Source of the DNA: Tubulanus polymorphus
Lineage: Eukaryota > Animalia > Nemertea
DNA: 64,000 bases
Direction: 5' to 3'
NCBI RefSeq assembly: GCF_964204645.1
Contig: NC_134032.1
Span: 2,938,175-3,002,174, forward strand
Shown piece after piece: positions 11,852-59,320 of the stretch. Within the stretch, counting starts at the first letter, position 1; each line of letters opens with the position of its first letter. Made by a program: the position numbers and the translations under genes. The notes beneath the pieces were generated by a model that saw nothing but the letters and a program-made list of their open reading frames with translations, was not told the DNA's origin and searched no databases.

Positions 11852-11880
11852 GATTCACGCGGATCAAATGATGGTGTATT

Positions 11881-16026: not shown

Positions 16027-16051
16027 ACAAATAACAAGTCATGGTGTTTGA

Positions 16052-17116
16052 CTAATATTCAACGTATTGTTTTTTCCTGGTTTTTTCTATTGAAGGTGGT
16101 GTTCCGGATAGTGATCTATCCTTTCGTTTTGCCGAGGTCGGTGTGCAGAAAGCATCACTAGTGACGCCATCTATTGCCTCGCAAAAGTGTTTAAGCAATG
16201 CAAGCTTGCCGGTTTCACTGAGGTGAATACCACTTTTATCGGTCGGCGAATAAAAGTGGTCCAAAGCTTTACCAGACGGTTTAAGTTTCAATATAGTGTC
16301 ATTATCAATAAACATGATATTCTGTTCCGCGCATAGTTTCCCGATATGGTTGTTAACTGCTATTGCAAGGCTGTTGTACTCTTTTACGTTGTTGGAGTTA
16401 CCTTTTCTTGGAATGATACTAGAGAAGTGAATCTGGGCTTCATTGAAATGTTCCGTTGTTTTGGCCATGGCTAAGGACAGATTCACCACTACAGTGTCAC
16501 TGTCATTTTTGTTGTTACTTATATCGTTTGTACCTAAGTGGAGAATAACGTCAGTAATCGACGATCGATCTAGAATCTGATTGTCAGCTTTATTCAGAAG
16601 CGATGAAATCTTTTCACCGCTAGCACCAGGCTGGCAAATAACCGTGCCATTCGGAAACTCGAAGTCACGGAGGTTAGAATCACCGATTACTAATACATTA
16701 TTTGTAATAGTATTGGACAGCGGTTCGATTGACGTTTTCTCGCAATAGTCACGCGCTTCGTTGGATATCGTGTCGCTCAGAGTCACGGTACAATCACGAG
16801 CTTTATGTTCTGCGGCGCCACATTTGAAACACTTAAATCGTGACGGACAGTCAGCTGAGCGATGATCGCCAAGGCAATGTTGACACCCTATACCCTCACA
16901 GTACACTCTTACGCGGAATCCATCGATTGATGTGAAGTTTGGAATAACTTTATTAACTTGTTTCAATTTCAAATATCTGGTCCCAGTATATATTTGAGTG
17001 TCCCTTATCACGCCTTTTTTTACCGATCCTTCAACATAATCACCATTATTTTTAATAAAGTTGACAATGGTCAGATCCGACATCTCATACGGAGCATCGA
17101 CTATTTTCACAGACAA
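16052..17116 (-). CDS. LINE ORF1: RRM-like region, two CCHC zinc knuckles and SGNH/GDSL esterase (no ATG at the 5' end, likely truncated)
   Basis: CQHCLGDHRSADC, CFKCGAAEHKARDC; VIGDSN, HLGTND, GIHLS. Confidence 0.85.
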   Translation of the reverse strand: MSVKIVDAPYEMSDLTIVNFIKNNGDYVEGSVKKGVIRDTQIYTGTRYLKLKQVNKVIPNFTSIDGFRVRVYCEGIGCQHCLGDHRSADCPSRFKCFKCGAAEHKARDCTVTLSDTISNEARDYCEKTSIEPLSNTITNNVLVIGDSNLRDFEFPNGTVICQPGASGEKISSLLNKADNQILDRSSITDVILHLGTNDISNNKNDSDTVVVNLSLAMAKTTEHFNEAQIHFSSIIPRKGNSNNVKEYNSLAIAVNNHIGKLCAEQNIMFIDNDTILKLKPSGKALDHFYSPTDKSGIHLSETGKLALLKHFCEAIDGVTSDAFCTPTSAKRKDRSLSGTPPSIEKTRKKQYVEY

Positions 17117-17149
17117 AAGGAAAAAGAGGAAGGAAAAGAATGTGCATAG

Positions 17150-19039
17150 AAAATCTGATTAATAATAATGATAAAAGAGATAATGAACAATATCTTTAAA
17201 AACACTCAACAGGATTTCGGAATAAATCTAGGGTTGTGCCACAGATACCAACTTCCTGAAGGATTTGGGTGACTGGGCATTAACAACTGATGCAGAGAGA
17301 TTATTCAATTGGGCTTTGGAAATAGTTTTTGTGCGTATAGCAGTGTTTGTAGTTTCCTGAATGATTAGAAACGACGCTATTTTCAAAAATCTTATAATGG
17401 GAATAATTTATGCTTTTGATTATGTGGTCGGAAGGCGTCCATTATCGTATTCGAACATAAATTCATTGAGGAATAGGAAGTTTTGACAATTTTACGTCGA
17501 GCCATTTTTACTACCGGCCACACCTGCCAGGAATGAAACGGGGTATATTCCTGAAATAGGATAACGAAACCAACAGATATATTAGATGTATTGGATACAG
17601 GTTGATTCTCTTTTTTAATCGATGTGCTGGACACTTCGGTTTCTTTTTGGATCCGATAAAAACCATCCTGGACAAGGAAGTGACCTAAATGGGGAAATTT
17701 TTGTCCGTTGCCTAATCTAATGCCGACAACTTTACCCCGGAGAGTGGGACATCATACTACTCCGGAACCTAGCTCAATTGTCTTTCTCGTGCACATGACG
17801 TCGTGGTTTGTTCGCCAAGCAGTCGTGGATACTTGTCATACTATCTTGAGATAACTACATATAATAACAAGACCCGATAATCAACATACTTGGTTATTTA
17901 TGACCATGACCATAGGGAGAAACTGACCCCAGCCAGATACGTGTGAAATTTGGCCCATGTCAATTGAAAAGGGCACAGTATTCACCGATTCGCATTCACA
18001 CGAAGATTCATAATTTGGCACGTGCCTGGTCTTACGTTTTGGTCGGACTATATTCTTCCCGTTTCAAACAGGCATGTGTCCGGCACCTCCACGCCCGGGC
18101 GCATTTCAGAAATTATCGGTGATTGCAATGAATAATGGGTTTATCTGTAAATATTATGCATCAATTTGTTCAGTAAGGAATTTGCATTCAGAAATAAATC
18201 ATGATGTGGCATAGATTTGTTTGTGTTTTTCATCTATCAGCGAAAGTTTACCTAGCATACGTTCGCGTAATGCTGAAAAATCTGCTTTTATGCCCCGTCA
18301 CGTGGTGGCACCTACTGCATTTTGATATGCTAATGAGCAGGTGATGACGTAACTGTAACGTTTCCGAGCGTCCGGTGAGCTGATTTTTAAGCATTACACG
18401 AGCGTATGCTGAGTATGCTGAGTAAACTATCGCTCATAAATAAAAACAAAAACACATTTAGTAGAAATTGTTGATTATTTCTGAATGCAAATCCCTCACT
18501 GAACGTCTTTCGGAGAGCAGGTGTGATAGACAGTAACTGTTTATTCTATTGGAAGTCTGTTCTAATCATCAGTTTTGATACCCAGGTTTATCTTGAATTT
18601 ATTATCTTCTTGTATTTTAGTAACTAAGTCGGTTTGTTCCTTATTTTCTCGAAAATGTATCCTTTTGCTGGAGCTCAGTTTCCTTTGGTCTCTTGGTACA
18701 GGCAGCACCCTCGCTCTTCGGTGTTGTCATATCGCGGAAAGACGGAAACGCGGAATTTTCCAAAAACGCGGAATTTCTTCATTTTTACTTTAAATAGAAA
18801 ACGGGTTTTCCCACGGGGATACCCGTGCCTAATATAAACATATTATCCGCAATTGCAAGTAGTCGCAGAATGTAATATGTGGTTACTTCTGATTTAAAAC
18901 GATATAGAATGACATATGTGTAAATATTGAGGAAAAATCCAGTGCTCCAAATTGCAGGTAAACAGTAAACATACACGATTACGATGTTAAAGATGACCTT
19001 ATTCAATGAACAGTGTTGTTCAACTGTAGAATTTTCCAT
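17150..19039 (-). pseudogene. Fragmented GPCR pseudogene interrupted by insertions
   Basis: 19039-18830 encodes MENSTV...GFFLN...LLAIADN (TM1-2). ~17580-17520 encodes VILFQEY, similar to the TM5 FFQEIFP of the 9 kb paralog. Confidence 0.5.
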
Positions 19040-21935: not shown

Positions 21936-22856
21936 ATTTGATGAAAGATTTTTCACAGGGTAGATGGTTACATAATATCGTAAAAGTGAGATGGTTGTAT
22001 TACGCAGGGGATTGGTTACATTCAGGCATCACTTGCCAGATCATTCATTCAATGAAAATGTCCGAAGCTACGATCAAGTTACCGACCGATGGTAATTCAT
22101 TCATCATAAAAGGGAAACCTATGCAATAGAAGTAATGGTCATAGAATCTTATAGAGCCAATATTCATGTGATGCCATGGTTATAAAAAGGCGGGACCGCG
22201 ACGAGTGAGGGTTCGGGGAAGCGGACGAACCCCCTGAAATTTTTCAAAATTAACATATATTTTTCATGTTTTTTTTGGAAATGATAAGCCTTAGCTTCGT
22301 TTCTCATCTTCTTCTAATGGACCAAATTTCAGCTATTCCGACCGTACCAACTATAAGTGGATGATAGATGTGAGTATATTTCGCAAGATTCCTGATAATT
22401 AATTAGTGCCAAATTGTGTCAACCATAAAGTAACTTCATTTCTCTAATGGTAGATAGCTACCATGAATAATACTTTATTCGTATCAAATAAATTAACCAA
22501 ACGCGCGAGACTCCGTGCAAACAGTATGATACCATCAATCCTATATGGCGAATAGTTTGACAGTATCTCTAATGAATGGTGAATAGCTATCACCTGTAAG
22601 ACTTGTAAATAAGACGTTTTGTAACCACACGGATCTCTTTCTCGTGAAATTAACTTATTGATTCATCAGAGAATGCAGCCAGTCCAAGCAGCGGAGACGA
22701 TCATCCATTAATCTTACATGCAAATATCAGGATTAAGATTTGGATGCTAATTTGATTTGCTAGAATTTGATGGCAAACAAGAGATTACAAAAGGATATAA
22801 CACTTAGAAGTTTCTAATAGATTTGTAACTCATAACGTGCAACTTGTTGATACGAG

Positions 22857-23809
22857 ATGAATTATACTGAGATGCACTTAGTTGGACGACCTTACAGCAG
22901 TTACATCGTTCTAATGACATTGGTGAACAAGTCTGGCACCTACCGTACAGTTTCATTGGTCATACTGCTTGTCATGTTCTTGTTTGGAGCGTTTGGAAAT
23001 TCGGCTACATTCCTGATAATGATAAGTCGCAGATTCCACCGTTTATCTTACGCTAACTACCTGATCGCTTTGTCTATCAGTGATTTAGTGTTCTGTGTCT
23101 GTTTTACGCTGATGCCTATTTTACAGTTTGTTCTCTTTAGTCTAAATACTGGTCAAATAATCTTGGTAGATTCACTGATCAGTTGTCAAATATACGAATT
23201 CTTGATAAATTCGATGGGCGCCAATAGTGCCTGGTTAATAGTAGCGATATCTCTAGAACGTGCGGCAGTTGTTCTCTTCCCGTTCACATCTCGTTTGATA
23301 TCTACGTCACCCAGATTTGCCCGATGCGTTGTTGCTTTTATGTCCACAATAAATGCATTCGTAATTGGTGTTCATCCTGTAGCAACAATGACATTTGTTT
23401 ATCCTTTCGGATGTTACTACAAGTCTTCGGACCAAACCTTACTTTTTATGATATGTGTAATATACGTTTTTCTTGTACCGTTAACTTTCAAATAATATCA
23501 AATTCTGTCATAATAATTCAGTTATTCAGGGGTTCAAAAATGGTTTCGTCCGATCAGAAAACTACAAAATCAAAACGTACAACAATAATGCTTCTAACAG
23601 TTTCACTCGCATTTGCAATTTTTACACTGCCAAACTCTCTGGTCGTACTTTTACCAATCTCACCGGAACATACAGACTTCCTCATAGATATTTCCTCCCA
23701 GTTCGAATCGTGTAATTATGTCGTCAATTTCTACATATACCTTTTACTGGGACAAGAAATTCGTGAATATTTCTGTATGAAAATCCGCTGTAGAAATTCA
23801 TTGAAATAA
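22857..23809 (+). pseudogene. GPCR paralog of 10910-11851 with one frameshift near 23490
   Basis: Near-identical blocks (GAFGNSATFL, SNSVIIIQLFRGSKM.SSDQKTTKSKRTTI) split over two frames. May be a sequencing error. Confidence 0.85.
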
Positions 23810-32640: not shown

Positions 32641-33054
32641 TAGGAGTATATAGGAATATGTTGTTTCAGGTCAAAGGTTGAAGGGGAGAGTGTGCTCGAA
32701 GTCGGTGAAGAAAATCTTGGAGAAGAGAAATTAATTTTGATGAATTTGTTCGGTTTGTTTCACAGAACTAAAATGCACTGATTACTTTTTTTGTTTTGTA
32801 AATGTTCGGCCAGGTCGTCGAGGTCGACGGGAGTAGGTTGCGCTTAGATGCCGTAACGGCGTTGAACCCGGGATAGTAGGTCCTTATAGCTGCCGATAAA
32901 TCCAGTCCACGAACGCGCGTGCCAAAACAAAATCTTTAAAACAGGTGAAAATTAAGATCAAGATGAGCCAAGAGGTTTGTCTGTATGTCAGTGAGACTGA
33001 GACTCATTACCATCGCGCATTAGACCTGTTCGGTCTTTATATGCAAATAAGTAT

Positions 33055-33715
33055 GGGACCATTCATTTATTACGTACGCATCAAAATCCGATTTTTTAAC
33101 CCCCCTCCCCCTGTACGCATGCATACTTTTCCCAATACCCCCCCCCCTTTGTACGTACATTTTTCGTTATAGTGTACTTTCAGAATTAAACGCCGTAATG
33201 ATGATGATCGAGCCAGTTACGATAGTACTACTCACCCGGATCGTCGTCACTAATGAAGCGGGTGTTCATAAACCACGGAATTAAAAGACATACAACAACA
33301 AACAATTAAAATAAAATCAATGCATTCAATGCGTTCTTATTTGCATTCAACATTAATTACAACAATCGTCACAGAATCGATAGACTTGTTGCCTACGGTT
33401 TGTGTTGACTCGTTCGTTCTATTCATTGATGATATCGGCCGTACTCTGCCCATTCTCGTAGCTTTCCTATATGTTCCTATTCTTTGTTAGGTATCACGCT
33501 TAACTCAAAACCCGCTTTAGACGGAAGCTGGAAGATCGTTTACTGACAGTGACGCTTGAAATAGAATTACCCCCCCCCCCCCCACCAAGCGTACGTACAG
33601 GTACACGATCATTGAATTACCCCCCCCCCTCTCCATTCGTACATAACTGTACGCATTTGAACGGATCCCCTCCTCCCCCCCCCCCCCAACGTGCATACGT
33701 AATAAATGAATGGGC
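33055..33715. mobile_element. MITE / non-autonomous TIR element that truncates the pPolB intein
   Basis: TIRs ccattcatttattacgtacgca / tgcatacgtaataaatgaatgg; internal poly-C and cgtac repeats. Confidence 0.75.
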
Positions 33716-33719
33716 GCAC

Positions 33720-34212
33720 ATAATTTCTCATAATTTCAAATCTTGATTACATAAATACCAACAACATTTTGTACAATTAACATATTTATAAACACCTGCT
33801 GAACCATCACCCATAATCACCCTATTATAAATATTATAAATTATTTCATCAAATGACTTATGATTCATTCTTCGATAAAATCTTTTATGTAGTAATTCAT
33901 CTCCAATTTTTATATCGGTTGGTTTTATTTTATCACCATTTTGTTAACTAAACTATGATCTTCAGTAACACCTACAAACCCTAATTTAGGTCTAACTGTA
34001 TAAATATTTTTATTTGTTTTATGTCTAAATATATTCTTTGATTTTTTCCATCCATTTCTTGTCCAAACATCCAATGATCAATTTATTTGTATGAATTCTT
34101 TTTCACCATATAAAATATAAAATTCATTTTGTTTTGGAATTATTTCTGAAATTCTTCTAATTAATATTTGGTTATTGTATCTTAATAATATTGGGGTATC
34201 AGCTGTTACAGA
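33720..34212 (-). other. Intein (Hint N-terminal blocks plus start of a LAGLIDADG endonuclease), 3'-truncated and decayed
   Basis: YVD|SVTADTPILLR...IRRISEI (block A); VWTRNGW; IYTVR...VGVTEDHSL (block B TxxH); IKPTDIKIGDELLH; MGDGSAGVY...WYLCNQDL. Confidence 0.85.
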
Positions 34213-36100
34213 ATCAACATATTATATTTCAATATGCTTTTCCCCAAAAAGTGGTTGTAAAACATTATGATAAAAATGATACATTAATAATTTTGATATT
34301 TCTAAAACAGTTGGACCAATGAATATAGGTTTATTAAATTTCATTGACGTTCTTTTTAATTTTACCGCGGTTAAATAATCTTCAAATCTTTTATTTCCTT
34401 AATGTCTTGGACTTGATTGTAAATGTCTCAATCGTTCAGAATTATTTACTAGTTCAATATCATTTCTATTTCGAATATCCTCGCAAGTTTTTCAATAAAA
34501 ACTACTATTCATTAATTTGGAGAAATCTTTTTCAAAATCTGTTTTAAAGATGGTTCTCTGTTGAGTATTAAAATCTGTATATTTTTCTAACCACTTCGAT
34601 TGATTAAATTCAATATATCTATGTACTTTCTTTAATTCCATTCCTTGTTTTAAATAAACATCTAACATTCTATAATGAACAATATAATTGTATTTATTAT
34701 TTTGAGTAAGTATTAATTTTTCTGTAAAAACATGATCTTTCGGTTTTATTTTCTTCTGGTATTCACTTAAATAACTATCATCTACGGCTAAATGTTCTGG
34801 GCAATATGGTAAGTTTCTTGTTTTAAACATTATGTTATCAGGATATTCTAAATCAACTACAAAGAAATAACCAATTGGTGCTTCATCTTTTAAACCCATA
34901 ATTGCACTTTCCCAATCAGTTTTATCATCATTTTCAACTTCTGTTAATATCAAATTTTCATATGGTTGAGGTTGCATCATTGCCCAACCATATAGATTAT
35001 TTGCATCAATATACAATAATTTGTATTCATCATTTGCTTTAAAATGTCCCATAACACCACTAATTCCACCTCTAATTGATTTTTCAAATAATAAAACCAT
35101 GTCTGGTTCTTTTAATAAATCTAATTCTACATTTGTATATTTTAAACCACATTGCCAGGTTAAACCAGGACTTGAATAACAATAACAGGGATCAACATTA
35201 AAATGATTTAAATTAACTTCTCTAAATTTTATCATACAATCTGATTTTAAAAATAAATCTACTAAATCACCATGATTTTTTATCTTAAAATGATTCCAAA
35301 TATTCAATGTTCTATGAAACACTTCATCTTTCACATACTCCTCTTTTAAATGATCATAAAATTGTTCCTTTAATAATTCTGTTACATAAAAATCATCATG
35401 TGTTTTATAAAATGAATAAGGAATTGCGCCTTTATATCTCGATAATTTTAAATCTTGTTCATTTGGATAATAATATCGAGTTAGTATAAAATCATTATCA
35501 ACTAAACTTTTTGCTAAATTATCTAATGAACTTGCTAGAAATCTATAAGAATCTAAAAACCTAATGCAACCAAATTGAAATGAAATATAATTTTCAGATG
35601 TCTTAGCTAATAGTTTAAAATCATATATTCTTACATTTGCTTCATTCATAGCATTAAATTCTTCTATTTCTTGATTAATTGCGCCCAATTTTCCTGATAA
35701 TTGTTTAATAAATAGATGGGTATCATAGCCTGATAAATTATGAAATAATATTGGTGCGAAATTAACTTTCTTAGCTTGAAAATTCCAAGCTTCATGAGCA
35801 GCTCCACAATATTTTGAATTTAAATGATCGTGATCTCTAACTTGTTTAACAAATGAATAAAAACGTTTTTCACAGTAACAACAATGAGTTGGATAATTAA
35901 AATCAATTTCATCTTCTTTTGTCATAACTATTCTTTTATTTTTGTTCAATAATTTTGCAAAATCATTTTCTATTTCAACTATTTTATTACAGAATTCATT
36001 TACTACATCTTCACCTCTAAAAGAAACATATTGACTTTCATACAATTTAGGATAACTCGATTTTATATGACTTCCATAAGCAGCAGCTCTTTGATGAACT
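33720..36100 (-). pseudogene. Polinton protein-primed family B DNA polymerase (pPolB) pseudogene containing an intein
   Basis: EndoVII-like CCYC...RDHDH...GAAH; exonuclease FHNLSGYD and RFLDS; motif A LYIDANNLYGWAM; motif B KLMNSSFY*KT; KPIFIGPTVLEISKLLMY; motif C YVD followed by intein sequence. Confidence 0.92.
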
Positions 36101-36189
36101 TTTTAAATTGTATTTATAATTGGTTATGAATTATATCTTCATTTAGTTCATTTCCTTTATCCATTGATTTTAAAAAAAAGCTTTTTATT

Positions 36190-37930
36190 TAACAATAATA
36201 ATAATAATCAGCAGGAATACAATAGGGCTTCTGCGAAGGCAGCAGAAACCCTAATAATAATCAACAGAATTACAATAGGGTTCCTGCGAAAGCAGCAGAA
36301 ACCCTAATAATAATAATGAATATAGCAGCAAGCAGCGATAACGGGTTTCTGCCTTTCTGGATAGAATGTCGTTCAGGGAAACGAGCAAAGATTTCACACG
36401 AAATCAGTTCGTGACATTCCGTTTTTTGAAAGAGTGCCACCTAGGGGTCAACTCACAACATGGATATGTTGACCCACATGTGCTACTACGCGCAAAGTAC
36501 TAATGTGCCAGATTTTGGGGGAAATAACATCGAGAAGAACGGAGCTACGGTGTTTTTACCATTCGCTAGTGACAGTTTCAGCGCATATTCGGTTATTATT
36601 GGTTCCGAAAAAAGTCGACCAGATAAGAAAACCGAATTTGGCCCAAAGCACAAATTTGGCCTATAGGGTAAACTATGCAGGAGGGAAGGCCTAGTATTAC
36701 TATAAGTAGAGGAGTGACAAGTCAGTCTGATAAGTCAAGCGATCAGATGGGGACTACAATTCACATATGAAATTGATGTCCAATAACCATTATAAAAACA
36801 TAATCACGAACGGTACCAGCACTCCCCATTACTAACTGTCACTGGTCTCTGGCTAGCAATCATTCTTTATCGGTGCAGTGGGTAGGCATTTTCAACTGAC
36901 TTTGTTCTTCTATGACATTACCATCGCCGCTGCGTCACGATGTGATGTACATGTACAAGGGACCTCCAATTTGTAATGTATGTGATGTATAAACTGACTT
37001 TAGACCATTTAATATCGACGATAACAAGGTATCACCGACGCTGACATTTTCTGACGCTAACTAGTATGACCCGCCTTTTGGACCGGACCAATTCAATTCA
37101 ATTAAGAAAACGCGTACCGGTACAATGAATAAATAAACGGCTGTTGATTTTTCGAAGTATTGATATCCACGAACAAAACTATACTATTATAGAATGTTTA
37201 AAAGGGACTACTTTTAATAACAGTATGAATAAACTTACTTCACAAACAAGGAAGTACATTTTTAACTTGTGAATGGTCGAACTCCGGTTATTCACAGTAA
37301 CCTGTGATTTGGATATTCTCGGAGCCTTCCTTCTTTATTTATTTATGAAATGACGTCTAAAAATTTCAGATTCGCGCCAGTGTGCGCGCCATGATTGATG
37401 ATTGCTATTTCCACCGGTGTTATCTTTAAGTAACTTCAAGTTTAAAATAGGAAGCACAGTACATCCATAGAACCTGCGCGCAGCAAGAGACTGTTATATT
37501 ATTATCAGAGTTTAACATTTCGTTTCAAAGTTGTTAGTGGTCAAATCTAATAGAAGATGATATTTATGTGACGAAACTTAGTGGAAAATATGTTAAAATA
37601 ATAATCAGCAGGAATCCAATAGGGTTTCTGCCGAGGCAGCAGAAACCCTAATAATAATAATAACCAGCAGGAATACAATAGGGTTTCTGCGAAGGCAGCA
37701 TAAACACTAATAAACACGCGAATCTCAATAGGGTTTTCTGTGATGTAACAGAAAACCGTAATAATAATTATGCGAATGTCAATAGGGTTTTCTGTGAAGA
37801 AACAAAACAAACCCTAATATTAATCAGTACAATAACAATAGGGTTTCTGCGAAGGCAGCAGAAACCCTAATAGTAATCACGCGAATATTGATAGGGTTTT
37901 CTGTGAAGTAACAGAAAACCCTAATTATAA
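36190..37930. repeat. Hairpin-containing ~45-50 bp tandem repeats (36190-36320 and 37595-37930) flanking a Helentron/DINE-like insert
   Basis: Unit aatagggtttctgc(n)gcagaaaccctaataat. The atagc(a/t)gc...aagcagcgataacggg end at 36322 recurs at ~48127. Confidence 0.65.
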
Positions 37931-40822
37931 TAATAACGGTTCCCTTGAGATATTTTAAGTGTAAATCCAAGTGTATGTTTCAACAAATAAACTGTTTCAG
38001 TATTATACGTATTATGGGTGGTGATAAATAATTCATTTTTATGTCGCTGATGTCTACTACTCTCTATAATATTTAGTAAGCCATCCACTTAGAATCCAAC
38101 TGCTGCAGGTCATCTGATCAGGTGGACCATAAAATCATCAGGTGAAAGATAATATTTACCTTAATCGATTCGAATAGCCTACAGCAACAGTGACTGATGC
38201 TGGGATTAAGTAAACATATCAGTGTTTTTCTGCATATGGTGTTAGGCTCCCTGTGCTACTGATTATAGAAAAACCGAATCACTCGATATGAATAGCAAAT
38301 TTCCTCGTCGATTCACGCTGAGTATTCATCGAGCAATTAATTGTGGACATTGGAATCTGAGGATGAAACAGGTGACTTATATTGAAAATTTAGCTTAAAT
38401 TGTTTGCAACGGTTTATTGTTTGATGTTGGTCTTTTAACTCTGCATAAAATTATTTACCAAATTCCATCTACGTATATAATTCAAGTGATGCGTGTTGAT
38501 TTGTGATTTTTATTACAAGCACAATTTCGGCGGATGAATTATTTTCAATCAAACGAATTTCCGTGTGTTAAAGAGGACAACTAAATAATGACAACTGAGA
38601 AACTTTTCTCGACTTTTAAAATGTATCACTCATGTCATTATCGTAAGCATATTTAGAGTTTCTGCAAAATACTCTGTTTTATTGCTAAGTAAGGCCCCGC
38701 AGTTAATATGAAAGGTTAGATTTTAACAGTTTCGGGATAATTTAAACCCCATCCTCAGCGAAACTAAAATGGTATAATAATGAATTCACTAATTAAGACA
38801 TATAGTTGTTTCAATTCAAACTGACCACGGAATGCAGCAATGTCACATACATGTAATAAAATCAAATAAAATCTGAATCATAAAATATGTTGCTATTTTG
38901 AATACATGTCATGTCTATCACTGCCTGTCTTATGTGGCTGGGGATTTGTATGTAACACTCATCACTAACGTTGTGTTCACCATGCATTGCTACTAGCGAC
39001 TGGAAATTGGAGAAAATCAATAGGACCACCACTTGGGCTAATCGATTGACGATGAATATTTATTGAGCAGAAATATTAGTTCCCGGACTCTTAAGTGGAA
39101 CAGGTGACGGAATCCAGACAAAAACATCCACAACCACCGCTCCGATCCAGACGTAAATCCATAGTGCAGTAGAATGTAGCTCCTCTAGTTTTCCAGAGTT
39201 CCACTCTAGCTGATAAGTCGTTTGGGGAAACTAGCTGATTTCTTCTGTAGACATTCTTCTTAAGCTTCAGGTAATGGGAATTGTGCCCGGTACAACCACC
39301 AGTTTAATGACACTTAATTCAGATAATTTTAAGTGGTCACCATAGAATATTCCAATCAGAACTCACAGCAGCTACTCGTCAAGCTTTCGTTTACGAGATA
39401 TGTGTATTTTCTCGACTTATTGAATATTGCTTGTTTGGTAGAAATGCCCTTTAGTAAGAACCTAAAAAAACACCATTACATTAAAGATGCTGCATTTATA
39501 CATTATTCACTACAGACTATAGGACATCTTGAAAGGAAAATTCCAATCAAGTAATCTCAGTGTTCTCCATCTATTTAATTAAGGGTGATGAACCTGCCCT
39601 TTTGGAATAAATAAAAATAATTAAAACAAGAGGACTTCAAAGTCCTGAGGTTCGAAGAAGAAAAGTGTGATGTATAAGATATAAATTACATAAAAGAAAG
39701 GCAAATTATGAAAAAGGAAATTAAAAATCAATAGAGAAGTTTGCTTAGAAAAATTCAATTTGTTTGCCGTTTGCATTGCGCACGTCGTAATGCTATTGTT
39801 TACATCTGACGTCATCAATAAAATGCCTGCCTCTCAATCACCATAATTGGTTTACACTAAAAATGCGCTTACTTGAAAAACTATGCTATGTATCAATCTG
39901 GAATTTTCGGTACAATATCCGATGCGAAATACCTTGCTTTGAAGGTTTATTTGGTGTAAATCGGATCCAAAATGTTTCTAATATTTTGTTCATTACTTTT
40001 GAAGTGGTCTGTGGACCTATTTCATTGAGTCGTATCACGCCAACTGAAAAAAAAATCTTCCGATCCTGTCACGTGACTTCATGACTGCAACTTGACGAAA
40101 GCTTAGGTTCTCATTCTTCGAACCGATAAAATGTATGATAATGAATCATGAACACTGGCAGTGATATGTACGGTTTCTCTCATTATGTAGCATTCGTCAT
40201 ATTTCATCAAATAAGCAGGAATTTTCGATCAAATACCACGTTGTTTCATTTTTAACCAGTTGTTGGAATTAATTTTCGAATTACTGAAATATTCGTTGCC
40301 AAAACAAACATCATGCATTGAAAAGCAAACGATGAGCACTTGGTATTTCGAAGTACTTTGTCGTTATAAAATAACAAAGCCTGTGCACTACTGACGTGAC
40401 TAAAGCATTGGTGGACATCGCGCGGACAAAGTGAGTAATTTGACAATATGATTTTACGACCAACCAGCGTGGACCGTTGACTGGTTTGGGTTTATATTGG
40501 GGGCTGCCTAATTTTGTGCATCATTTTTAGGGAAAGACTATGATTTTGGGGGTATTTAAATACATATTACCCGGTATCCAGCCTTTTTGTTTGCACGACA
40601 ATTAGTTAGACCGGTCTAAATGGGTCCGCACCATGTCCGGTCTAAAATCTGAGTGTGGGTTCACACACGTCTTGCGAAATTGGCTACGAATTGTTATGAC
40701 TTGGCTCGCTAGATGTCATGATGTAATATATGAAATACCAACAGTTACTTCATGTACGGTCATAAATGAAGAAATCCCACACTTCGAATTAAATTATACT
40801 GATAGAATTTGTTATTTTGAAA

Positions 40823-40864: not shown

Positions 40865-40983
40865 AATAATTTCTTCATTTATCTACTGAGTACACGGATG
40901 ATAGTGTTTATTCGACGACTATGTACGATCATGGTTCCTTTTCTTTATTTGCATTTACTACTATATCTCTTCATTACTCTCAC

Positions 40984-40988
<5 letters not shown>

Positions 40989-41061
<73 letters not shown>

Positions 41062-41616
41062 TCTCCCTCTCTCCCTCTCTCCCTCTCTCCCTCTCTCCCT
41101 CTCTCCCTCTCTCCCTCTCTCCCTCTCTCCCTCTCTCCCTCTCTCCCTCTCTCCCTCTCTCCCTCTCTCCCTCTCTCCCTCTCTCCCTCTCTCCCTCTCT
41201 CCCTCTCTCCCTCTCTCCCTCTCTCCCTCTCTCCCTCTCTCCCTCTCTCCCTCTCTCCCTCTCTCCCTCTCCCCCTCTCCCCCTCTCCCCCTCTCCCCCT
41301 CTCCCCCTCTCCCCCTCTCCCCCTCTCCCCCTCTCTCCCTCTCTCCCTCTCTCCCTCTCTCCCTCTCTCCCTCTCTCCCTCTCTCCCTCTCTCCCTCTCT
41401 CCCTCTCTCCCTCTCTCCCTCTCTCCCTCTCTCCCTCTCTCCCTCTCTCCCTCTCTCCCTCTCTCCCTCTCTCCCTCTCTCCCTCTCTCCCTCTCTCCCT
41501 CTCTCCCTCTCTCCCTCTCTCCCTCTCTCCCTCTCTCCCTCTCTCCCTCTCTCCCTCTCTCCCTCTCTCCCTCCCTCCCTCCCTCCCTCCCTCCCTCTCT
41601 CTCTCTCTCTCTCTCT
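40989..41616. repeat. Compound CT-rich microsatellite: (CT)n followed by (CCCTCTCT)n
   Basis: Directly visible ~630 bp pure pyrimidine tract. Confidence 0.98.
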
Positions 41617-41864
41617 TCACGTACTCCAAAGCCAAAACCTAAAACAAATGTTCTTATTTCCTACATTCCTCATTTTCCTGAGACATTATCTTCATTTTAC
41701 TCCCTCCGGACCTGTGCTAACCATTCCATAATTAGTCCCTCCATACATTTCAGTCATAGCAACTAAATGCTTTTCTCCCTTGTAACATGAGCCATTTCCC
41801 TTCAGTGAGCGCACAAGCACACATCTAGTGTCAGCTATCGTGTTCACACCGTACACTATGGAAG

Positions 41865-47544: not shown

Positions 47545-50340
47545 AACTACACTAGCTCAAGGAAACATTTCAGACTCTTTTTATTCTAAGTGTGCAGGGA
47601 TTTTATATCATCTTTACAACAGAGTGTTTTATCAATGGTTATAATGAGGACAACATCTCATTATTCCTGAAAATGACTATTAGAATATTGTCGAATGAAT
47701 TGTTAGCTATCAGGAAACTTGTCGGTTTTCATCTTTCGTCAGATCACTATAGTATTTATTCTCTGTGAATAAATTATGTTTTAGGTATAGACAAATATGA
47801 AATATCCATGTCTTTTTGTGCGTAGAAATGTGAGAAAAGTGGAAAATGGAAAATGTGAAATTTTCAGAATATTGCATCCCATCCCTGATATGTGTCAAAG
47901 TTCGATGCTTTTAAGAGCTCGACCAAGAATTAAATGTAATAAAGGGAAAAGAAAGTTAAACAGGAACGAAATTTTATTGAAGAGCTAAGATATTGTGAAG
48001 TCATTAATCCGAAATAGTAATGGGCAATGCTAAATTCTACAACTAGTTCCAAACCCGGCATAAGCACGCTTATATTTAGTTGGATTTAGCACTGGCTATA
48101 TATAATTCGCATTAATATCATAAATATAGCTGCCAAGCAGCGATAACGGGTTTTTTTCTAAAGCCATTCAGAATGATGGGAATTGTAGTAAATTGAAATA
48201 TCGATACATAGAATAAAATGCATTGACAGATTCGAACCTAATATGCAACCACTGTGTAAACGTCAAATATGATTCAGCTTTGAAACCGAACATACGCGGA
48301 CGTACAATCACAAATATTAATTTATTTGACCAGGCATTTATTTTGGCATTCAAACATCATGATACTGTATTATCACCATGCTCAAAAATGGATCTGTCCT
48401 ATTAAGAACTCATCTTAAGCACCTGCTGAGTCGATAGATTGAGTGAATTTACAGATAAGAACGTACTATGATTTAGAATAGATTTAAGAAGTTAATGTTT
48501 TTATTGAAATATTTGAATAAATACATATATTGTAGTGTAGATTCAATCAATAAATTATGAATTGATCTGGTCTGGGTTTTCGGCTGATGTTGATTTTGGC
48601 TTTTATGGATTACAAATTCTATAGTGATAAACAATTGATACCTGCAACATGTGTGTAAATCAAACCTATTCCACTAGTTGCGTGTGTTTCCTAATAAACG
48701 GGAGAGTCACTCTTGATCCGAGTTATTAGAAAAATAATGTTCATTTAGTTATAGAAATTCATTGCCTTTTTGGAAATTCTGTAATTATATTTGTTCTGTC
48801 CTAATTTGTATTACTGTATGAACCAATGATATGCTTTGTAAATATGATGTAATAAAATAAATTTGAATTTGAATTAAATTTGAACATGAGAATCAAACAT
48901 AACTTGTGTTTTTTCAACTTGTCTTTTGTTAACAGTTCCAGAGTTTCAATTACAATCAAATCCAAATTTGGCTAAAAAAGTACATGGGACTAAATGAAAT
49001 GAACCGTTAGTTACTGCAAACCTATTCCAGTGTTATGTCGATCGTGTTGAATCACTTTCCTTGAGTTGAAAGAATCAGATCTTCTATGGTGCAACATCGG
49101 TCGAAGAGAGATATCTTGGTGTTGACTGTCCTTGGCCATCTAACTTCATGCGTTTGACGTTGGAATCAGCATCATACCCACAGTACATGTATACAGTAAT
49201 CAAACTTTCACCGATGTTAGATATTTGAATAAACGTTGGGCTTATTTCAGTATTCTAAAGCAGGAAATAATAAGCCCAATAAATAGGCCCTATTCCCATT
49301 GGAACAATTGTATAATGCGTACAGCAGCACTTATCAGTCAAGTATGGAGAAATCGGTATACCAAACCTACGAACAGCAAAATGTACAGGCCTCCAATGAT
49401 TTCTGGTATACAAGCCGTGACCATATGAACGTTTTGGTTTGACTATTAATGTCAGCAGGTCAGAGAAGGCCTGGTCAAATTTAATCACATGGCTCAAATC
49501 AATTAGCCTTTCTGCGTGTGAATACTTCACTGTATTGTTTTAAAAATAGACCTATCGAGTGAATTAGTACAAAGACTGAATTAGACTTTAGGCTAGTCCT
49601 GACCAAATCCTATGCATGTTATAATTGCACCAGTTATAGTAAAATCACTGTAGGGCCGACGAGAGGGAAAAAGTTGTGTTTGTAGTACATAGGCATGGTA
49701 GGCTTGTCGTACTCACTTAATACTTAAAATGCTGTCGTTACCTGTGCGTGACTGTACGATGATTTCTACAGGTTGGCCGTATGTGAGTACGTTGACGCTC
49801 AGACTTGCAATATTGGGATTCGAAACCAAACGAAAAAAAATCCAGTTGTAGTCCAGTGATTTACCCACGGTGCCACAGAACGTAACTGCAGGGTGGATGA
49901 AATTTGATTTACGAATAGCCTAGCCTCACCTAACCCAAACTCTATTCTTTTACGCATGCGCGTTTGCAGATTAAAGGAACTCACATACAACGTTTTTAGG
50001 GAACTTACGTACGGCGTTTTTAGGGAACTCACGTTCGGTTAACCTGTCGATATCACCGTACAGCAACGTACGCATAACAACTTCGTACTTAAAAAATGGT
50101 ATTGGCTACTATATAATAGGCCTCGGTAGGCTTTCTTAGCTTCCACACTTCACAACCGAACCAACTGACCAACCAGTATATTTATTCCCAGTACGCACCA
50201 ACCGGCAGAGGCCTAACACTGTTTGTCAACCGTGTGTACCGTAGTAGGCTATCGATAATCACCTGATACTTTTGTGTCGTTCGTTTTCTCTCTACATGTT
50301 GTCACTATGGTACCACAGTGGAGTGAGGGGAGGAGGGGGG

Positions 50341-50490
50341 ATGACGTCATACCGGAAGTGACGTAATCCAAGATGGCGACCGGAAGTGACGTAATCCAAG
50401 ATGGTGACCGGAAGTGACGTAATCCAAGATGGCGACCGGAAGTGGCGGTTAAAATTCAAATTTCAAATTTTTGGCGGGAAAATTCAAAAT
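50341..50490 (+). promoter_or_regulatory. Left terminal motif array: 3 x 28 bp CCGGAAGTGACGTAATCCAAGATGGCGA plus E2F/CHR-like site
   Basis: ETS (CCGGAAGT), CRE (TGACGT), YY1 (AAGATGGCG); ttttggcgggaaaattcaaa. The repeats are seen directly; function is inferred. Confidence 0.65.
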
Positions 50491-50790
50491 TTTTCCGTTA
50501 AATCCAAATCAAATTATTGACAACGAATCCAAATCAATTTATTGGCGGTTTTAAATCCAAATTGGTATGATTGAATCCTAGATGGCGCTTACGCATTCCT
50601 ATGCGTGTTTATGGGAAGAGTTGAATCCTAGATGGCGCTATTACGAGATCCTATGTGTACGTGGAGGTGAGGGGGAAGTGAAGTTAAATCCTAGATGGCG
50701 CTTTTCCCTGAGTACGGGCAAATTCGAGACATAGAAAACCAAAAATTAAAAAAAACAATGTAAAACAATAAAAAAACATTTTATTCACCG

Positions 50791-51354
50791 TTAAAATTTA
50801 CAGTTTAAACACGGTTTAAATCCGAATTCCTTGGCGCACGAGACGTGAATATAAGCGTCGCAGCAGTCTGTCTTTTGTTTAGTTATTTCCAAACACACTA
50901 AACACGTGTTGATGCCACAAAATAAAGTTATGCAGTTATAACAAAAGTTTTCTTCATACCCTTCACACGTTTTAAGTTCGCTTAAACAGGGCCAGCATAT
51001 AGTTTTATCACAACAATGAAGCAAATCCTCTTGCGCGTGACAACGATAACAGTCTTTTTTCGCGATATGTTTGATAATCCTAAAATGTGCCATGCAATTC
51101 TCGATAGGACATTCGAAATCATGTTGAACGCCTAACCATCGAGCGTTCACTAGCCAGCAATCTTCACAAATCGGTTTCCTGCAACACGTCGTTACTCGAA
51201 AACTACCGTATGTAATTGTCGTATTACAATATTTGCAAATCGCAAATCCGGTAGACCAGTCGATATCTTCAAAGTCGACATGATTTATTTCATGTTCCGT
51301 GGTAGTTGATTTTTTTAGGAAAATGTTTTCCACGGTAAAAAAATCGCCAGACAT
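50791..51354 (-). CDS. Cys-rich protein with three tandem RING-like zinc fingers (left arm copy, intact)
   Basis: CKYC..CC..CEDC..CPIENC; CYRC..CC..CWPC..CYNC; CLVC..CC..HVSC..CLNC. AATAAA follows the stop. Confidence 0.75.
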   Translation of the reverse strand: MSGDFFTVENIFLKKSTTTEHEINHVDFEDIDWSTGFAICKYCNTTITYGSFRVTTCCRKPICEDCWLVNARWLGVQHDFECPIENCMAHFRIIKHIAKKDCYRCHAQEDLLHCCDKTICWPCLSELKTCEGYEENFCYNCITLFCGINTCLVCLEITKQKTDCCDAYIHVSCAKEFGFKPCLNCKF

Positions 51355-51758
51355 TTTCGTAAATCACGTCTCGTTTATGCGAGTGTAAACAAAGCGAGTG
51401 CGCAGTTAAATCCTAGATGGCGCTAGTCCGTAATCCTATACAGATGCGTGCGCATGCGTGCGTTTGTGTGTACGTGTGTAAGCGAGTGACGTCATCCTAG
51501 ATGACGCCATGATTACATAATCCTATGCGAGAGCGTGTATAGAGAGGGAGCGGGGTAAAATCCAAGATGGCGTCTTTTAACGGCTATTGTGAAATCATGA
51601 ACGAGTTTGGGCGAAATATATTTCGCAACAACAAGTGAAACCGTAAATCGTGTTCGGGCAAGTCATTTTCTGACAATAACAACGCCATGTAAATCCATAA
51701 ACTAATCATTCTGCTCAGAGACTTTGAACCGTCAACATCATACAACATCATCGTAATA

Positions 51759-52568
51759 ATGGATTCGGCCAGCGGACAAAGTACCTTAGAAATATCTAAT
51801 ACACCAATTAAAGCAAAGTCATCGCTTCAATCTAGAAAAAGAAAACACCCCTCGCTGAAACTCGACTTTAGTAAGTTTCTACTTATTTCCCGTATTCGAA
51901 ACCGTCAAATATTAAGACATACGTATACTGATATATGATATTTTATTGTTCTTTTAGGTTCGATCGTTAATGACAACGCTGTCGCCGGTCCGTCGAAAAG
52001 TGCGAACTTGCGTAACACCTGGAACAATGACCCCGAACCCCATTATCTAGGATCTCTTGTTTACGCGAGTGCGAAAACGTGGCAGGGGGTAAAACGTGTA
52101 GATTTACGGTCGTACGAATGCTGTGAACGAAGAAAACAACTGTATCCCACTAAAAACGGTATTTCGCTCGATATCCAAGAGTGGGTGCATATAGATTTTT
52201 TTAAATCCGATATCGAACACGAAATTGCGCGCGTTAAAGAAGATATCGAATACGTGGGTGTAATGACTGTTGGTCGTACGAACTTTATCAAAATATATAG
52301 GTCTAGTCACGATCATCGTATTTACGTAGATATCCGAAAATACGATCTATTCGATGAACCTCTCGGTGTTTCCCCGACTAGATGCGGTGTAAAACTAACA
52401 TTGGAACAATGGAAAAAATTGAAAGACATTAATTTTACAGAAGATATATCCGAACTGGCTAATATGAGACCGTGCTGGTACGATTCGAGTCACTCGAATC
52501 AGAAATACAGGTGCCCGTACTGCGCAAAAGACACAAGCGGGGTTAGAAAGCACCTGAATACGGTATAA
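51759..52568 (+). CDS. Spliced tandem-PC4 (ssDNA-binding) protein, 240 aa. Exons 51759-51870 and 51958-52568
   Basis: 87 bp GTAAGT...TTTTAG intron joins an ATG exon (NLS-like RKRKHP) in frame. Two PC4 repeats (VDLRSY...PTKNGISLDIQEW; VDIRKY...PTRCGVKLTLEQW); C-terminal C..H..CxxC. Confidence 0.85.
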
Positions 52569-53266
52569 TGATAACCCAAGTATAATTAAAGTGATTTAAA
52601 ACCGCTCTGACCAAAAGAGGATTAACTAAAGTAGTGAGTTTCTATCTTTTACGAATTTTTATACGTAGCGACTCATTCGTCATCTACCGGATTGTATAAT
52701 TAAAAGCCATAACCCGTGTATATGTATAATATTTTTGGAAAAAAAAATTTATGTTTTTTAGATGAACGAGTAAATAATAAACTTGCAATGTATATAATAT
52801 TTCATATATGTTTCATTTTATTCGGATTTACTCTATAATAATCAAGCATTTTGTCGTTGGCCAGACCCCTTGATACAATATATCATCTATGAACGTAATT
52901 AAGTAATTGATAAACAAATACCATTGACCCATGGTTAGCATCTACCATCTAAAATATCTGGTCAGTACCCTCGATGATATGTGATGGAATATGCAGGATA
53001 AAAATTACGCAATTAAGTAATTGAGAAACAAATACCATCGACCCATGGTTAGCATCTGCCGATTAAGTTATTTAGATCAGAGACACAACCGCGATGGGGG
53101 GAAATTAAGTATGAGCAAACCAACTATAGTATACCCCATTTCGGGTGTGTTGGTTGTTTGTTGATTGACTGACGCGATTAAGCTGTTTGGAAAACCTAGA
53201 CTAGTAACAGATGGTTTTCTACGACGAGTTTATAGAAATATAATTTAGAAATAATACATAATAGTT

Positions 53267-53720
53267 TATTATAGAAGCTTAAAATATTTCACGATAAATT
53301 TTTCTTTTACAAAATAATCATTATCATTAGTTTTATTTGACAATAGTTTCGTAATATCGCGTACATCGTTACCGTGACATAGGTGCAATAGTACAAATAT
53401 TGCGTAATAACAGAAATACATCGGATAATTCGTTTTGATACATCTTATTATTATATTTCCAATCTATACAATTTTCATCCAAGTATATTTCTAACATTTA
53501 TCACAAGTTCCGGGTTGTTGCCCGAACGAATCAAAAATAACCGATTCCGTATTCGTTTATATATACAGTTAGCCAATGTTCACCCGGTTCGTCGTAATTG
53601 TCAGTGTTTACTATAAAACCCAGCGGGACGCTGGTTTATATCTGGTAGTCGATCGCATGGAAAAACGCCAAAGAAAGACGCTTTTAGATATTCCTCTAGT
53701 ATAACTATTAACATATCGCA
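53267..53720 (-). pseudogene. Second (inverted) copy of the adenain-like protease pseudogene
   Basis: Reverse complement of 56260-56707 with the same frameshift at gctgggttttatag. Confidence 0.85.
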
Positions 53721-55744
53721 AGCGAATTTATTAACGTTACAATCTCATGGATGAATCGAAAAAACTATTACTTTACTTTACTTTTGCTTTATTTGACAAA
53801 CTCTTGGTCTTAATACAAAGACAATTCGAGTGATACAGTATACATAAAAATAAATACATTATATATAGGACGCACAGTAGATAGATACATAATTACACAT
53901 TGATTTTAATGTGAGCTATCAATTGAAAAGTTTCAAAATTCTTCCAACAAAAATACACAGTTTACGGAGTTCGGCTACATCTTTAGTTTGCATTAATAAT
54001 TTTTATCTGAAAATGTTGGGGGTTCGTATAAAATCTCCTGTCTAGGTATAACTCCCTTCTATCATTTAGATATATACAGTTGAAAAGGTAATGAAATTCG
54101 TCCCCAATTCCATTATCACACAATTTACATATTCTTTCAGCACGCTCTACATTATTCCATCGGCCAGTTTCTATTGGGAGCTTATGGTTTGCAGGACGGA
54201 ATTTAGTTAAATTAATTATGAGGTTATCTGAAAGATCAGAGACTAGATGGTTACGGGGCTTGACTCAATGCCACGCGCTTGGACATGTTCTAATGTTATG
54301 TATTGTATACAAAGTGTTGACAAGCTCAATTTATACAGCATTGTAGCCCTCCGGCATTTTCAAAGTTTTAGATGATTTATCAGTAGAAATACTCTTATAT
54401 TGCGCATCCTAGTGCGTTAGTGTTTAAGTGATTTTAGTGTTTTAGTGTCGAATATGTAAAACCGCAGTTTATTGGATTTCGAGTTGTAAGCATTTCCCGA
54501 TAACTTACATTAATTATAATGCAGAATTCTTTATTTCCAGTTAACGAGGTTTAACAATTTTTCAGTTTAAAAAAAATATGGTTTGGACTTTTTTAATAGG
54601 AAAATACTAACAGGTTTGATGAAAAAATAGAAAATGGGATTTCCGGTTTTATCATTTTTCAGTATATGGCGTTTTAGTAGGATGATGATTTTAAATTTTC
54701 AATAAACGCGGTATAACAATTTTTAGGTTTTTGAAAATATGGTTCCAAAGTCTTGTATACACAAGAGATTTTAAACAACGAAACTACACACACATGTAAC
54801 TAAATCACTTTAGTCTTTCCAAATATAGAGAAATAACAGACAAAAATATGTATATGTATATACCTTATCTTTTTTTCGCATCGCTTTTTCTTTGTTACAA
54901 AATTCCCAATTTTTAAAAACTTTTCTTAAATATTTATGTTTTTTAAACATATTTTCTCAAATTCCCCATACTTTTACATCGCAATATTATATCGAGATTT
55001 TCTACATTTCATGCATTTTACAGCTAGACCTTGGTAAATTTATAAAGATTTGGTACGTTAAATAACGCAGCAGGTAAACATTTCAATTGTATTACTTCGT
55101 TATGCGTAAATGTTTCGCGTCATCTTCGTACAATATATGACTGCTATCGGCAGAAATATGGTAAATTAGGAATTAACATATCTTAAGTTAGCTTCACTTT
55201 TTAGCAACGGACTTTTGCGCGTTGCCAATTTTACAAAAACTGAAAATTCAAACGATTGAATTTATGTGTTAATACCAGTTTATTTTACGTCTTAATCAGT
55301 TGGATAGCAGGCATAGAGTGTTATGATAATTAGTTACAGTATACACAGAATAGAATCGAATATTATACTACTTGATTACTCATACTTCATCAGATCGTAA
55401 CTGAGATTGTCCTACAATGACTTTTCTTTAACTATATACTCGTTAACTGGAAATAAAGAATTCTGCATTATAATTAATGTAAGTTATCGGGAAATGCTTA
55501 CAACTCGAAATCTAATAAACTGCGGTTTTACATATTCGACACTAAAACACTAAAATCACTTAAACACTAACGCACTAGGATGCGCATTATAAGAGTATTT
55601 CTACTGATAAATCATCTTAAACTTTGAAAATGCCGGAGGGCTACAATGCTGTATAAATTGAGCTTGTCAACACTTTGTATACAATACATAACATTAGAAC
55701 ATGTCCAAGCGCGTGGCATTGAGTCAAGCCCCGTAACCATCTAG

Positions 55745-56210
55745 TCTCCGATCTTTCAGATAACCTCATAATTAATTTAACTAAATTCCGTCCTGCAAAC
55801 CATAAGCTCCCAATAGAAACTGGCCGATGGAATAATGTAGAGCGTGCTGAAAGAATATGTAAATTGTGTAATAATGGAATTGGGGACGAATTTCATTACC
55901 TTTTCAACTGTATATATTTAAATGATAGAAGGGAGTTATATCTAGACAAGAGATTTTATACGAACCCCCAACATTTTCAGATAAAAATTATTATTGCAAA
56001 CTAAAGATGTAGCCGAACTCCGTAAACTGTGTATTTTTGTTGGAAGAATTTTGAAACTTTTCAATTGATAGCTCACATTAAAATCAATGTGTAATTATGT
56101 ATCTATCTACTGTGCGTCCTATATATAATGTATTTATTTTTATGTATACTGTATCACTCGAATTGTCTTTGTATTAAGACCAAGAGTTTGTCAAAAGTAA
56201 AGTAAAGTAA
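55745..56210 (+). mobile_element. LINE 3' end (RTE-X-like CCHC tail) with (AAAGT)n tail; inverted copy at ~53770-54245
   Basis: LTKFRPANHKLPIETGRWNNVERAERICKLCNNGIGDEFHYLFNC. Confidence 0.8.
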
Positions 56211-56259
56211 TAGTTTTTTCGATTCATCCATGAGATTGTAACGTTAATAAATTCGCTTG

Positions 56260-56707
56260 CGATATGTTAATAGTTATACTAGAGGAATATCTAAAAGCGT
56301 CTTTCTTTGGCGTTTTTCCATGCGATTGACTACCAGATATAAACCAGCGTCCCGCTGGGTTTTATAGTAAACACTGACAATTACGACGAACCGGGTGAAC
56401 ATTGGCTAACTGTATATATAAACGAATACGGAATCGGTTATTTTTGATTCGTTCGGGCAACAACCCGGAACTTGTGATAAATGTTAGAAAATATACTTGG
56501 ATGAAAATTGTATAGATTGGAAATATAATAATAAGATGTATCAAAACGTATTATCCGATGTATTTCTGTTATTACGCAATATTTGTACTATTGCACCTAT
56601 GTCACGGTAACGATGTACGCGATATTACGAAACTATTGTCAAACAAAACTACTGATAATGATTATTTTGTGAAAAAATGCATCGTGAAATATTTTAAGCT
56701 TCTATAA
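56260..56707 (+). pseudogene. Polinton adenain-like cysteine protease pseudogene
   Basis: FFGVFPCD.LP...P.GF/IVNTDNYDEPGEHWLTVYI...YF/DSFGQQP...YNNKMYQNVLSDV; frameshifted. Confidence 0.85.
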
Positions 56708-56935
56708 TAAAACTAAAATGTATATGGATTTAGTCGTTTTTTAAATTCTACAAAATCACTGAGGAAAAAAGTTTTGTTAAAACTTGGAGAAAAAACTGAA
56801 GCAAAAAGCGCGGCAAGGCAAATTAACACTGGCTCTTTCTTGAAAATTGAAGTGGTCCTGAAAAGGACCTTTTGAGGAAGGGGTCAGTGTCCGAGTTCGT
56901 CGTCGTCGTATTCTTCGGCAGTGTTGTCATCAACA

Positions 56936-58922: not shown

Positions 58923-59320
58923 TATTACGATGATGATGTTGACGGTTCAAAGTCTCTGAGCAGAATGACTAAATTATGGATTTGCAACGCGTTTTTATTG
59001 TCAGAAAATGACTTGCCCGAACTCGTTTTACGGTTTTACATGTTGTTACGAAATATGTTCGCCTAAACTTGTCTATGATTTCACAATAGCCGTCAAAAGA
59101 AGCCATCTTGGATTTTACCCCGCTCCCCTCTATATACACGCTCTCGCATAGGATTATGTAATCATGGCGTCATCTAGGATGACGTCACTCGCTTACACAC
59201 GTACACACAAACGCACGCATGCGCACGAATCTGTATAGGATTACGGACTAGCGCCATCTAGGATTTAAACTACGCACTCGCTTTGTTTACACTCGCATAA
59301 ACGAGACGTGATTTACGAAA

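Follow-up and report, generated by a model that had tools for sequence, protein, structure and literature searches.

The window, by which we mean the whole 64-kb stretch of DNA analysed, carries a fragment of a Polinton-type protein-primed DNA polymerase that runs directly into the start of an intein (Table 1). The fragment, delimited by tblastn with P0002 and P0003, ends at the Tyr-x-Asp of polymerase motif C, lacks the N-terminal third of the protein and contains three stops near its end. These two full-length relatives span 36123-34210 at 64-65% identity, the alignment ending at 34210. Over residues 200-536, the window polymerase is 66-67% identical to its top protein-primed polymerase (pPolB) matches. 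The 536-aa window polymerase ORF has no Pfam match; intact relatives match PF03175.

Table 1. Features located in the window, in order of position
Feature	Position	Strand	Basis or remark
Open frame, no family match given	2-595		
rve integrase with chromodomain	626-1753		
A32 packaging ATPase	1754-2362		
Unknown ORF	2753-3196		
HNH-like ORF	3705-4400	-	Pfam E 0.086 only
Rhodopsin-type GPCR gene	10910-11854	-	
LINE: ORF2 endonuclease/RT; ORF1 with zinc knuckle and GDSL-esterase domain	13447-17158	-	
Rhodopsin-type GPCR gene, related, inverted, apparently frameshifted	about 22851-23809	+	
MITE-like element, 27-nt terminal inverted repeats	33054-33718	.	arms 33054-33080 and 33692-33718
Remainder of N-terminal Hint part and start of LAGLIDADG domain, past the frameshift	33725-33946	-	P0007 similarity; intact-intein profile
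Intein N-terminal splicing region	33937-34212	-	TIGR01445; intact-intein profile
Polinton-type protein-primed DNA polymerase fragment (N-extein)	34213-36123	-	tblastn with P0002/P0003

Read in the polymerase frame, the translation is ...KHIEI(stop)YVD/SVTADTPILLRYNNQILIRRISEI...VWTRNGW...IYTVRPKLGFVGVTEDHSLV, where the slash marks the junction and the first serine of the insert lies at 34212. The continuation of motif C in the window is SVTADTPILLRY...VTEDHSLV, where the nearest polymerases, P0002-P0004 (66-67%), which are intein-free, have YFD/TDSYILKIKT; the TDS is missing after the YVD of the window copy. A 94-residue piece (34212-33931) matches the intein_Nterm model TIGR01445 with an E-value of 7.8e-6 and 26.8 bits, above the curated cutoff of 24.5. 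Block A is present as SVTADTP at 34212 and block B as the TEDH of VTEDH, at 33966-33955. An earlier note on this DNA had proposed, from the letters alone, that YVD is followed by an intein start instead of TDS, and a match to a Hint or intein model had been called for; the translation and the TIGR01445 match confirm that the window holds a Ser-start intein N-terminus directly after the motif-C Asp.

Beyond a frameshift near 33943, the insert continues in a second frame, whose translation over 33943-33731 is IKPTDIKIGDELLH...MGDGSAGVY...WYLCNQDL. This second piece is 51% identical to residues 1275-1359 of P0007, with a 14-residue gap; the corresponding 14-codon gap, near 33820, deletes most of the first LAGLIDADG helix and leaves MGDG at 33814-33803. 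A profile of 346 positions, built from the five intact Polinton inteins described below and run on the six-frame translation of the window, finds the first piece at positions 1-92 (iE 1.5e-32) and the second at positions 90-178 (iE 1.6e-14), its six remaining matches having iE values of at least 0.12. The window intein spans only profile positions 1-178 of 346, and the C-terminal half has no significant profile match anywhere in the 64 kb. Other searches with these pieces gave little: neither matches an intein family in Pfam, the second has no NCBIfam match, the 94-aa piece has three chance-level matches only among PDB sequences (E 0.53), and a word-based protein search with it gave one match among 29 candidates.

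The window copy is a dead relic. Its stops are at 34494-92, 34401-399, 34224-22, 34080-78, the last of these within the intein N-terminal region, and 33730-28; the block F Asp, the terminal Asn and the +1 residue are not in this incomplete copy. The broken end of the intein is adjoined by a MITE-like element with arms that are 89% complementary, and read joints skip 33081-33692 inside this element. That the copy is dead had been claimed before, and the stops, the frameshift and the missing C-terminal half uphold it; the MITE adjoins the break, its causal role being a supposition of that claim. The window copy would have decayed and lost its C-terminal half after the arrival of the intein.

The remainder of the window is varied. 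In positions 1-5200 lies the end of a distinct Polinton-like gene block, most of which is open. The polymerase/intein fragment is just 2.4 kb long and the integrase and A32 ATPase lie 31 kb away from it; this integrase/ATPase block may belong to another element. A minisatellite family with 53-59-nt units (36199-36335 and 37596-37934) lies immediately upstream of the polymerase fragment; 40924-41700 is a long CT-rich microsatellite. A palindrome of about 10 kb occupies 50329-60402; its arms are 90-100% complementary, each carries a PC4-domain ORF (E 5.6e-14) and a Cys-rich ORF, and 28-nt tandem repeats are present at both ends.

Intact relatives and predicted splicing

A polymerase search found 1107 proteins, and motif C was classified in the best 120 of them: an intein starts at motif C in 4, motif C is empty in 93, and 23 are truncated or carry a variant missed by the pattern. 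Two further carriers, P0307 and P0311, were added by a search with the intein region of P0007, whose best 120 matches comprise 6 protein-primed polymerases and 114 members of PF00136 (RNA-primed PolB). With the window piece as query, an exhaustive search yielded 969 representatives; the top one, P0122 (65%), is a fragment with the same polymerase-intein junction.

Five carriers are intact, with inteins of 354 (P0007), 346 (P0013), 337 (P0115), 339 (P0307) and 350 aa (P0311). Every one of them has Ser1 (in an SV start), VDVTEDH, VYD, a terminal Asn and TDS from position +1, so that the search suggested earlier for intact copies ending in Asn, then TDS and resumed polymerase sequence, has found them; intein-free alleles, also sought, exist in P0002-P0004 and in the non-carriers of the P0013 family. 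The penultimate residue is His in three of the five, Ser in P0007 and Lys in P0311. Two LAGLIDADG motifs, GF[FL]x[GA]DG and GF[YF]x[AG]DG, are kept in all five inteins, and LAGLIDADG_3 (PF14528) is above cutoff in each; Intein_splicing (PF14890) gives E-values of 2e-9 to 1e-5 over the five and passes its cutoff in one. The polymerase of P0311 matches PF03175 with an E-value of 9e-32. An Endonuclease_7-type domain in the relatives is separate from the intein, far upstream.

The ten PDB entries that best match an AlphaFold model of the P0007 region (pLDDT 63.5, pTM 0.59) are inteins with an endonuclease, and I-DmoI comes next. TliVMA is the best (E 5e-13), and PhoVMA, PI-PkoII (2cw7), PI-PfuI, PI-SceI and mini-inteins are also matched. 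When sequences were compared, the intact-intein profile found PI-PkoII as its best PDB match (E 6.4e-9). A Hint fold is predicted with moderate confidence for the intein of P0007, which was modelled in place of the window copy. By its sequence features, the family answers to a canonical (class 1) intein with a LAGLIDADG domain, for which splicing is predicted.

Splicing would follow the standard route, with Ser1, the TEDH of block B, the Asp of block F, the terminal Asn and the +1 Thr as participants. The attack of Ser1, helped by block B, would be followed by transfer to the +1 Thr and by cyclization of the Asn, and the Asp-Thr-Asp-Ser of motif C would be restored; the steps assigned to Ser1, block B, the +1 residue and Asn are established intein chemistry. 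Splicing would be obligatory, for the insert interrupts the catalytic motif: an unspliced polymerase is left without this motif, so that splicing should be selected for as long as the element replicates.

For the context of the intact carriers, 200 loci were fetched from IMG/VR and JGI metagenomes, including the best 80 of 306 from one IMG/VR scan and the best 80 of 85 from JGI metagenomes; none of the 200 contained a pPolB at an E-value of 1e-4. P0013 had no match in plasmids. Among 151 further cluster members, seven mimivirus-cluster proteins are the only ones to match the intein profile.

Probable homing versus inheritance alone

P0013 stands for a family of 136 sequences. We read 40 of these and list 15; the ENA contigs that bear them are between 57 kb and 1.0 Mb long. 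Seven of the 15 listed members are carriers, six are empty at the site and two are fragments without intein. In the 12 members that were aligned, exteins are 94-99.7% identical and inteins 96-99%, and all five aligned non-carriers have a gap of 346 columns exactly between D and T/C. Seven carriers were compared with four non-carriers of one type, P0280 and P0278, of another type, being left out. The fixed differences occupy 10 columns of the 1191-residue extein, and all 10 fall within -7..+44 of the site (-7, -6, -2, +3, +4, +8, +9, +23, +39 and +44). Differences bunched in the flanks are as homing, with co-conversion by a related donor, would leave them, and co-conversion of flanks in homing is described as an established mechanism in the accessible text of PMC10710043. 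The compared members are near-copies, so the signature may record one event; a similar flank pattern would arise if the empty copies had been selected for target escape.

During homing, the LAGLIDADG domain would cut the DNA of an empty motif C, and repair off a carrier would copy the intein and some flank. Empty targets would be offered by further Polintons within the nucleus or by co-infecting elements. We consider it highly probable that the window holds the broken N-terminal half of a LAGLIDADG intein, which splits motif C of a Polinton polymerase between its Asp and Thr in a probably animal genome, and that the relatives of this intein, which are predicted to splice, have likely spread by homing.

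It is improbable, in our judgement, that a true intein was gained once, long ago, and has since only been inherited or lost, its endonuclease no longer homing. Such a history would suit the rarity of carriers (the 4 in the best 120 polymerase matches) and the similar identities of inteins and exteins within the polymerase class of the window (47 vs 45, 44 vs 43, 44 vs 40 and 76 vs 80%); these near-equal values fit long vertical residence with losses, and equally repeated homing. P0115 with P0307, and the window with P0007, also pair up, in part, in both the intein and the polymerase trees. Yet in the P0013 family exteins that are 97-99% identical either have or lack the intein and diverge in its flanks only, both LAGLIDADG motifs are retained in the five intact inteins, and P0311 calls for a jump between unalignable polymerase classes. 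The P0311 intein shares 40-46% identity with the other four, whereas the N-extein of P0311 cannot be aligned with theirs (E 0.38-2.0): an alignable intein on an unalignable polymerase requires a lateral jump. P0311 is probably of the Alpha class, and the class of the window probably Beta.

The polymerase tree requires 6 changes for 7 carriers over 45 rows. With 32 rows, 5 changes are required for 6 carriers, and a single carrier clade is rejected by an AU test (p 2.5e-60) from which P0311, a long branch, was left out. The window polymerase groups with three intein-free proteins (100/100) and the window intein with P0007 (100/96).

Spread by homing, the reading we prefer, can be carried further. 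The intein would still be homing among Polintons of animal germlines, would have jumped between two deep classes via the motif-C target that they share, and would be driving escape at motif C; we advance this tentatively, with somewhat more doubt than belief. Among the intein-free polymerases around P0013 (the P0012-P0085 group), DCDS, DTDG or DTDA replaces DTDS in 32 of the 42 that are readable, 17 more of this group being truncated or unread; in the other groups, motif C departs from DTDS in 3 of 56. These variants, which are found in related copies, may represent escape from the homing site.

Proposed origin of the intein and probable identity of the host

Giant-virus PolBs carry inteins at the same place, which we take to be the one labelled pol-c. 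The intein of the Acanthamoeba mimivirus polymerase (P0363), for instance, lies after the Asp of YxD and before TDS, starts with Ser, has TEDH, ends in Asn and bears a LAGLIDADG domain; the P0115 intein is 43% identical to the mimivirus intein. The difference is that the giant-virus inteins sit in RNA-primed PolBs, whereas those of Polintons sit in the protein-primed polymerase of an integrating element and form a clade of their own. Two intein trees were built, in which the window intein was entered with X at its breaks and fills 42% of the columns. The first, a quick one with 67 rows, leaves out 45 of 111 full-length inteins; the second, with 58 rows (LG+G4), was obtained after dropping nine (two long branches, one of odd composition and six near-duplicates). 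The six Polinton inteins stand on one branch among the RNA-primed PolB inteins in both, with SH-aLRT support of 100 in the first and 100/99 in the second. We classed the non-Polinton rows as giant-virus-type on the strength of their Pfam domains and of some names (P0363, mimivirus; P0396, Mimiviridae ChoanoV1); one match among the RNA-primed PolB inteins is filed under an archaeon.

The trees are unrooted, and the Polinton clade is nested with 67 rows under midpoint rooting and sister to the rest with 58 rows. As they have no outgroup, we infer the direction of transfer from diversity, which is far greater among the inteins of RNA-primed PolBs. We propose that the Polinton inteins would have a single origin in the pol-c intein pool of giant-virus RNA-primed PolBs, aided by the conserved motif-C target, and that movement among Polinton lineages, with gains and precise losses, would have followed entry. 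The link to giant-virus PolB inteins drawn in the earlier note is thus supported by the intein trees. Its suggestion of an invasion from a large DNA virus holds as to giant-virus-type kinship, with the direction inferred as above; it does not hold as a one-off event, for the family extends across several Polinton lineages.

Four sequencing runs of one organism contain 16-19% of the sampled window words. One of them, the whole-genome run X5, covers all 30 bins of the window, flanks included, with a depth of 217-232 inside the intein, a mean of 350 over the extein and 7-16 in the lowest bins. This contrast indicates a multi-copy family, the intein depth matching about two-thirds of the extein depth. 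Contigs from three runs cross the polymerase-intein junction: X1 (34081-34478, gapless), X2 and X3. In run X3, the contig depth summed over 33708-36274 exceeds that of low flanking bins about 100-fold, a larger ratio than in X5; a sum of this kind does not give a copy number. Reads differ from the window at four of its stops in 182/188, 364/372, 217/222 and 200/203 cases and at the frameshift in 129/190, so these breaks are largely private to the window copy. Since only 329 of 16,655 X5 reads are at least 99% alike to the window, the sequenced organism may be a relative of the window's species.

The host is likely an animal, to judge from the neighbouring GPCR genes (the one that was scanned matches 7tm_1 with an E-value of 1.5e-14, and all 17 PDB matches are GPCRs), from the LINE, and from Lamellibrachia satsuma, a named member of the same polymerase class whose cluster representative is intein-free. 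The earlier claim of an intein inside an animal genome stands as far as the GPCR genes and the LINE of the window carry it; it has to be amended in that the intein lies in a virus-like element and not in a host gene. It is very unlikely that the element lies outside any animal nuclear genome and is a contaminant, or results from chimeric assembly with protist or free-virus DNA. P0007, P0115, P0307 and P0311 are indeed on short contigs (5-13 kb), and adintovirus sequences are known contaminants of some datasets, according to the accessible text of PMC8502044. However, the window copy is decayed and incomplete, and adjoins a MITE in 64 kb that also hold two GPCR genes and a LINE; X5, a single whole-genome run, covers all 30 bins including the flanks; and a polymerase of the same class bears the name of L. 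satsuma, even if its cluster representative is intein-free. Finally, a chance recombination of giant-virus polymerase DNA into one dead Polinton, with no role in splicing, has a negligible probability: RNA-primed PolBs (PF00136) do make up 114 of the best 120 matches to the intact intein region, but the insert starts exactly at Ser1 without giant-virus extein, in several lineages open full-length polymerases have the intein at this site, each Polinton intein finds its closest relatives among the others, and the intact carriers refute this reading unless all of them are assembly artefacts.

Relation to known inteins and Polintons

According to a 2021 review, in its accessible text, inteins are absent from metazoan genomes (PMC8529194), and a eukaryote-wide survey, as far as its text was available, places them only in fungi, some protists, algal plastids and large DNA viruses (PMC5784728). 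Inteins are known from Iridoviridae (PMC12220804 and PMC5784728, accessible parts), and inteins in viruses of animals are therefore not new. The closest eukaryotic parallel is provided by the endogenous giant-virus polymerase inteins of Klebsormidium, Tetrabaena and a labyrinthulomycete (PMC10710043, main text), which also lie in viral-type polymerases on nuclear scaffolds of eukaryotes. The hosts in that case are algae and a protist, whereas the Polinton element is present in multiple copies, in which occupied alleles coexist with empty ones; metazoa, animal or polinton are not mentioned in that main text.

Polintons or Mavericks (adintoviruses), with Alpha and Beta classes of PolB, are described in PMC8502044; they share with the present elements a protein-primed PolB, and PF03175 is matched by the intact relatives. 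The word intein has 0 occurrences in the accessible text of that paper. Endonuclease domains inside Polinton polymerases are on record, in the form of HNH and VSR domains in pPolBs (PMC10748475). Those inserts have no described splicing domain in the accessible text, in which both 'hint' and 'intein' have 0 occurrences, whereas the Polinton intein family combines a complete Hint domain and a LAGLIDADG domain at the catalytic motif. One sentence in PMC11071308 suggests that the endonuclease inserts of Polinton polymerases stem from intein invasions. Within the text available, this is the nearest published statement, and its source describes HNH/VSR domains without inteins. No report of a Hint-domain intein in a Polinton polymerase was found in the literature searched, mostly open-access main text; the texts without one, in their accessible parts, include PMC3671162, PMC5718144, PMC5871332, PMC13768754 and bioRxiv 10.1101/299784. 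We regard the family as canonical inteins with an endonuclease domain, for which the host protein is of a new kind and the host genome likely so.

If this is correct, the rule that metazoans lack inteins would have an exception in the multi-copy family of animal Polintons, by way of a virus-like element and not of a host gene, and this family would include the first true intein found in a protein-primed polymerase, as far as the literature shows. It would also be direct genetic proof of a cell that housed both Polintons and polymerase genes of giant-virus type; in animals, the Polinton-like viruses associated with insect poxviruses (PMC11296320, accessible text) are an earlier example of residence alongside large DNA viruses. 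The intein origin suggested for inserts in Polinton polymerases (PMC11071308, in the sentence cited above) would become testable. As a single family has both occupied and empty alleles, sequence comparison would allow homing, co-conversion and target escape to be measured. Motif-C inserts of 350 residues would, moreover, disrupt alignments and annotation of Polinton polymerases. Related inteins with a Ser start also occur in other proteins of about 1500 aa, after LTDQD or TEGD (P0142, P0161, P0162, P0165 and others). By their motifs, these proteins may be type II topoisomerases.
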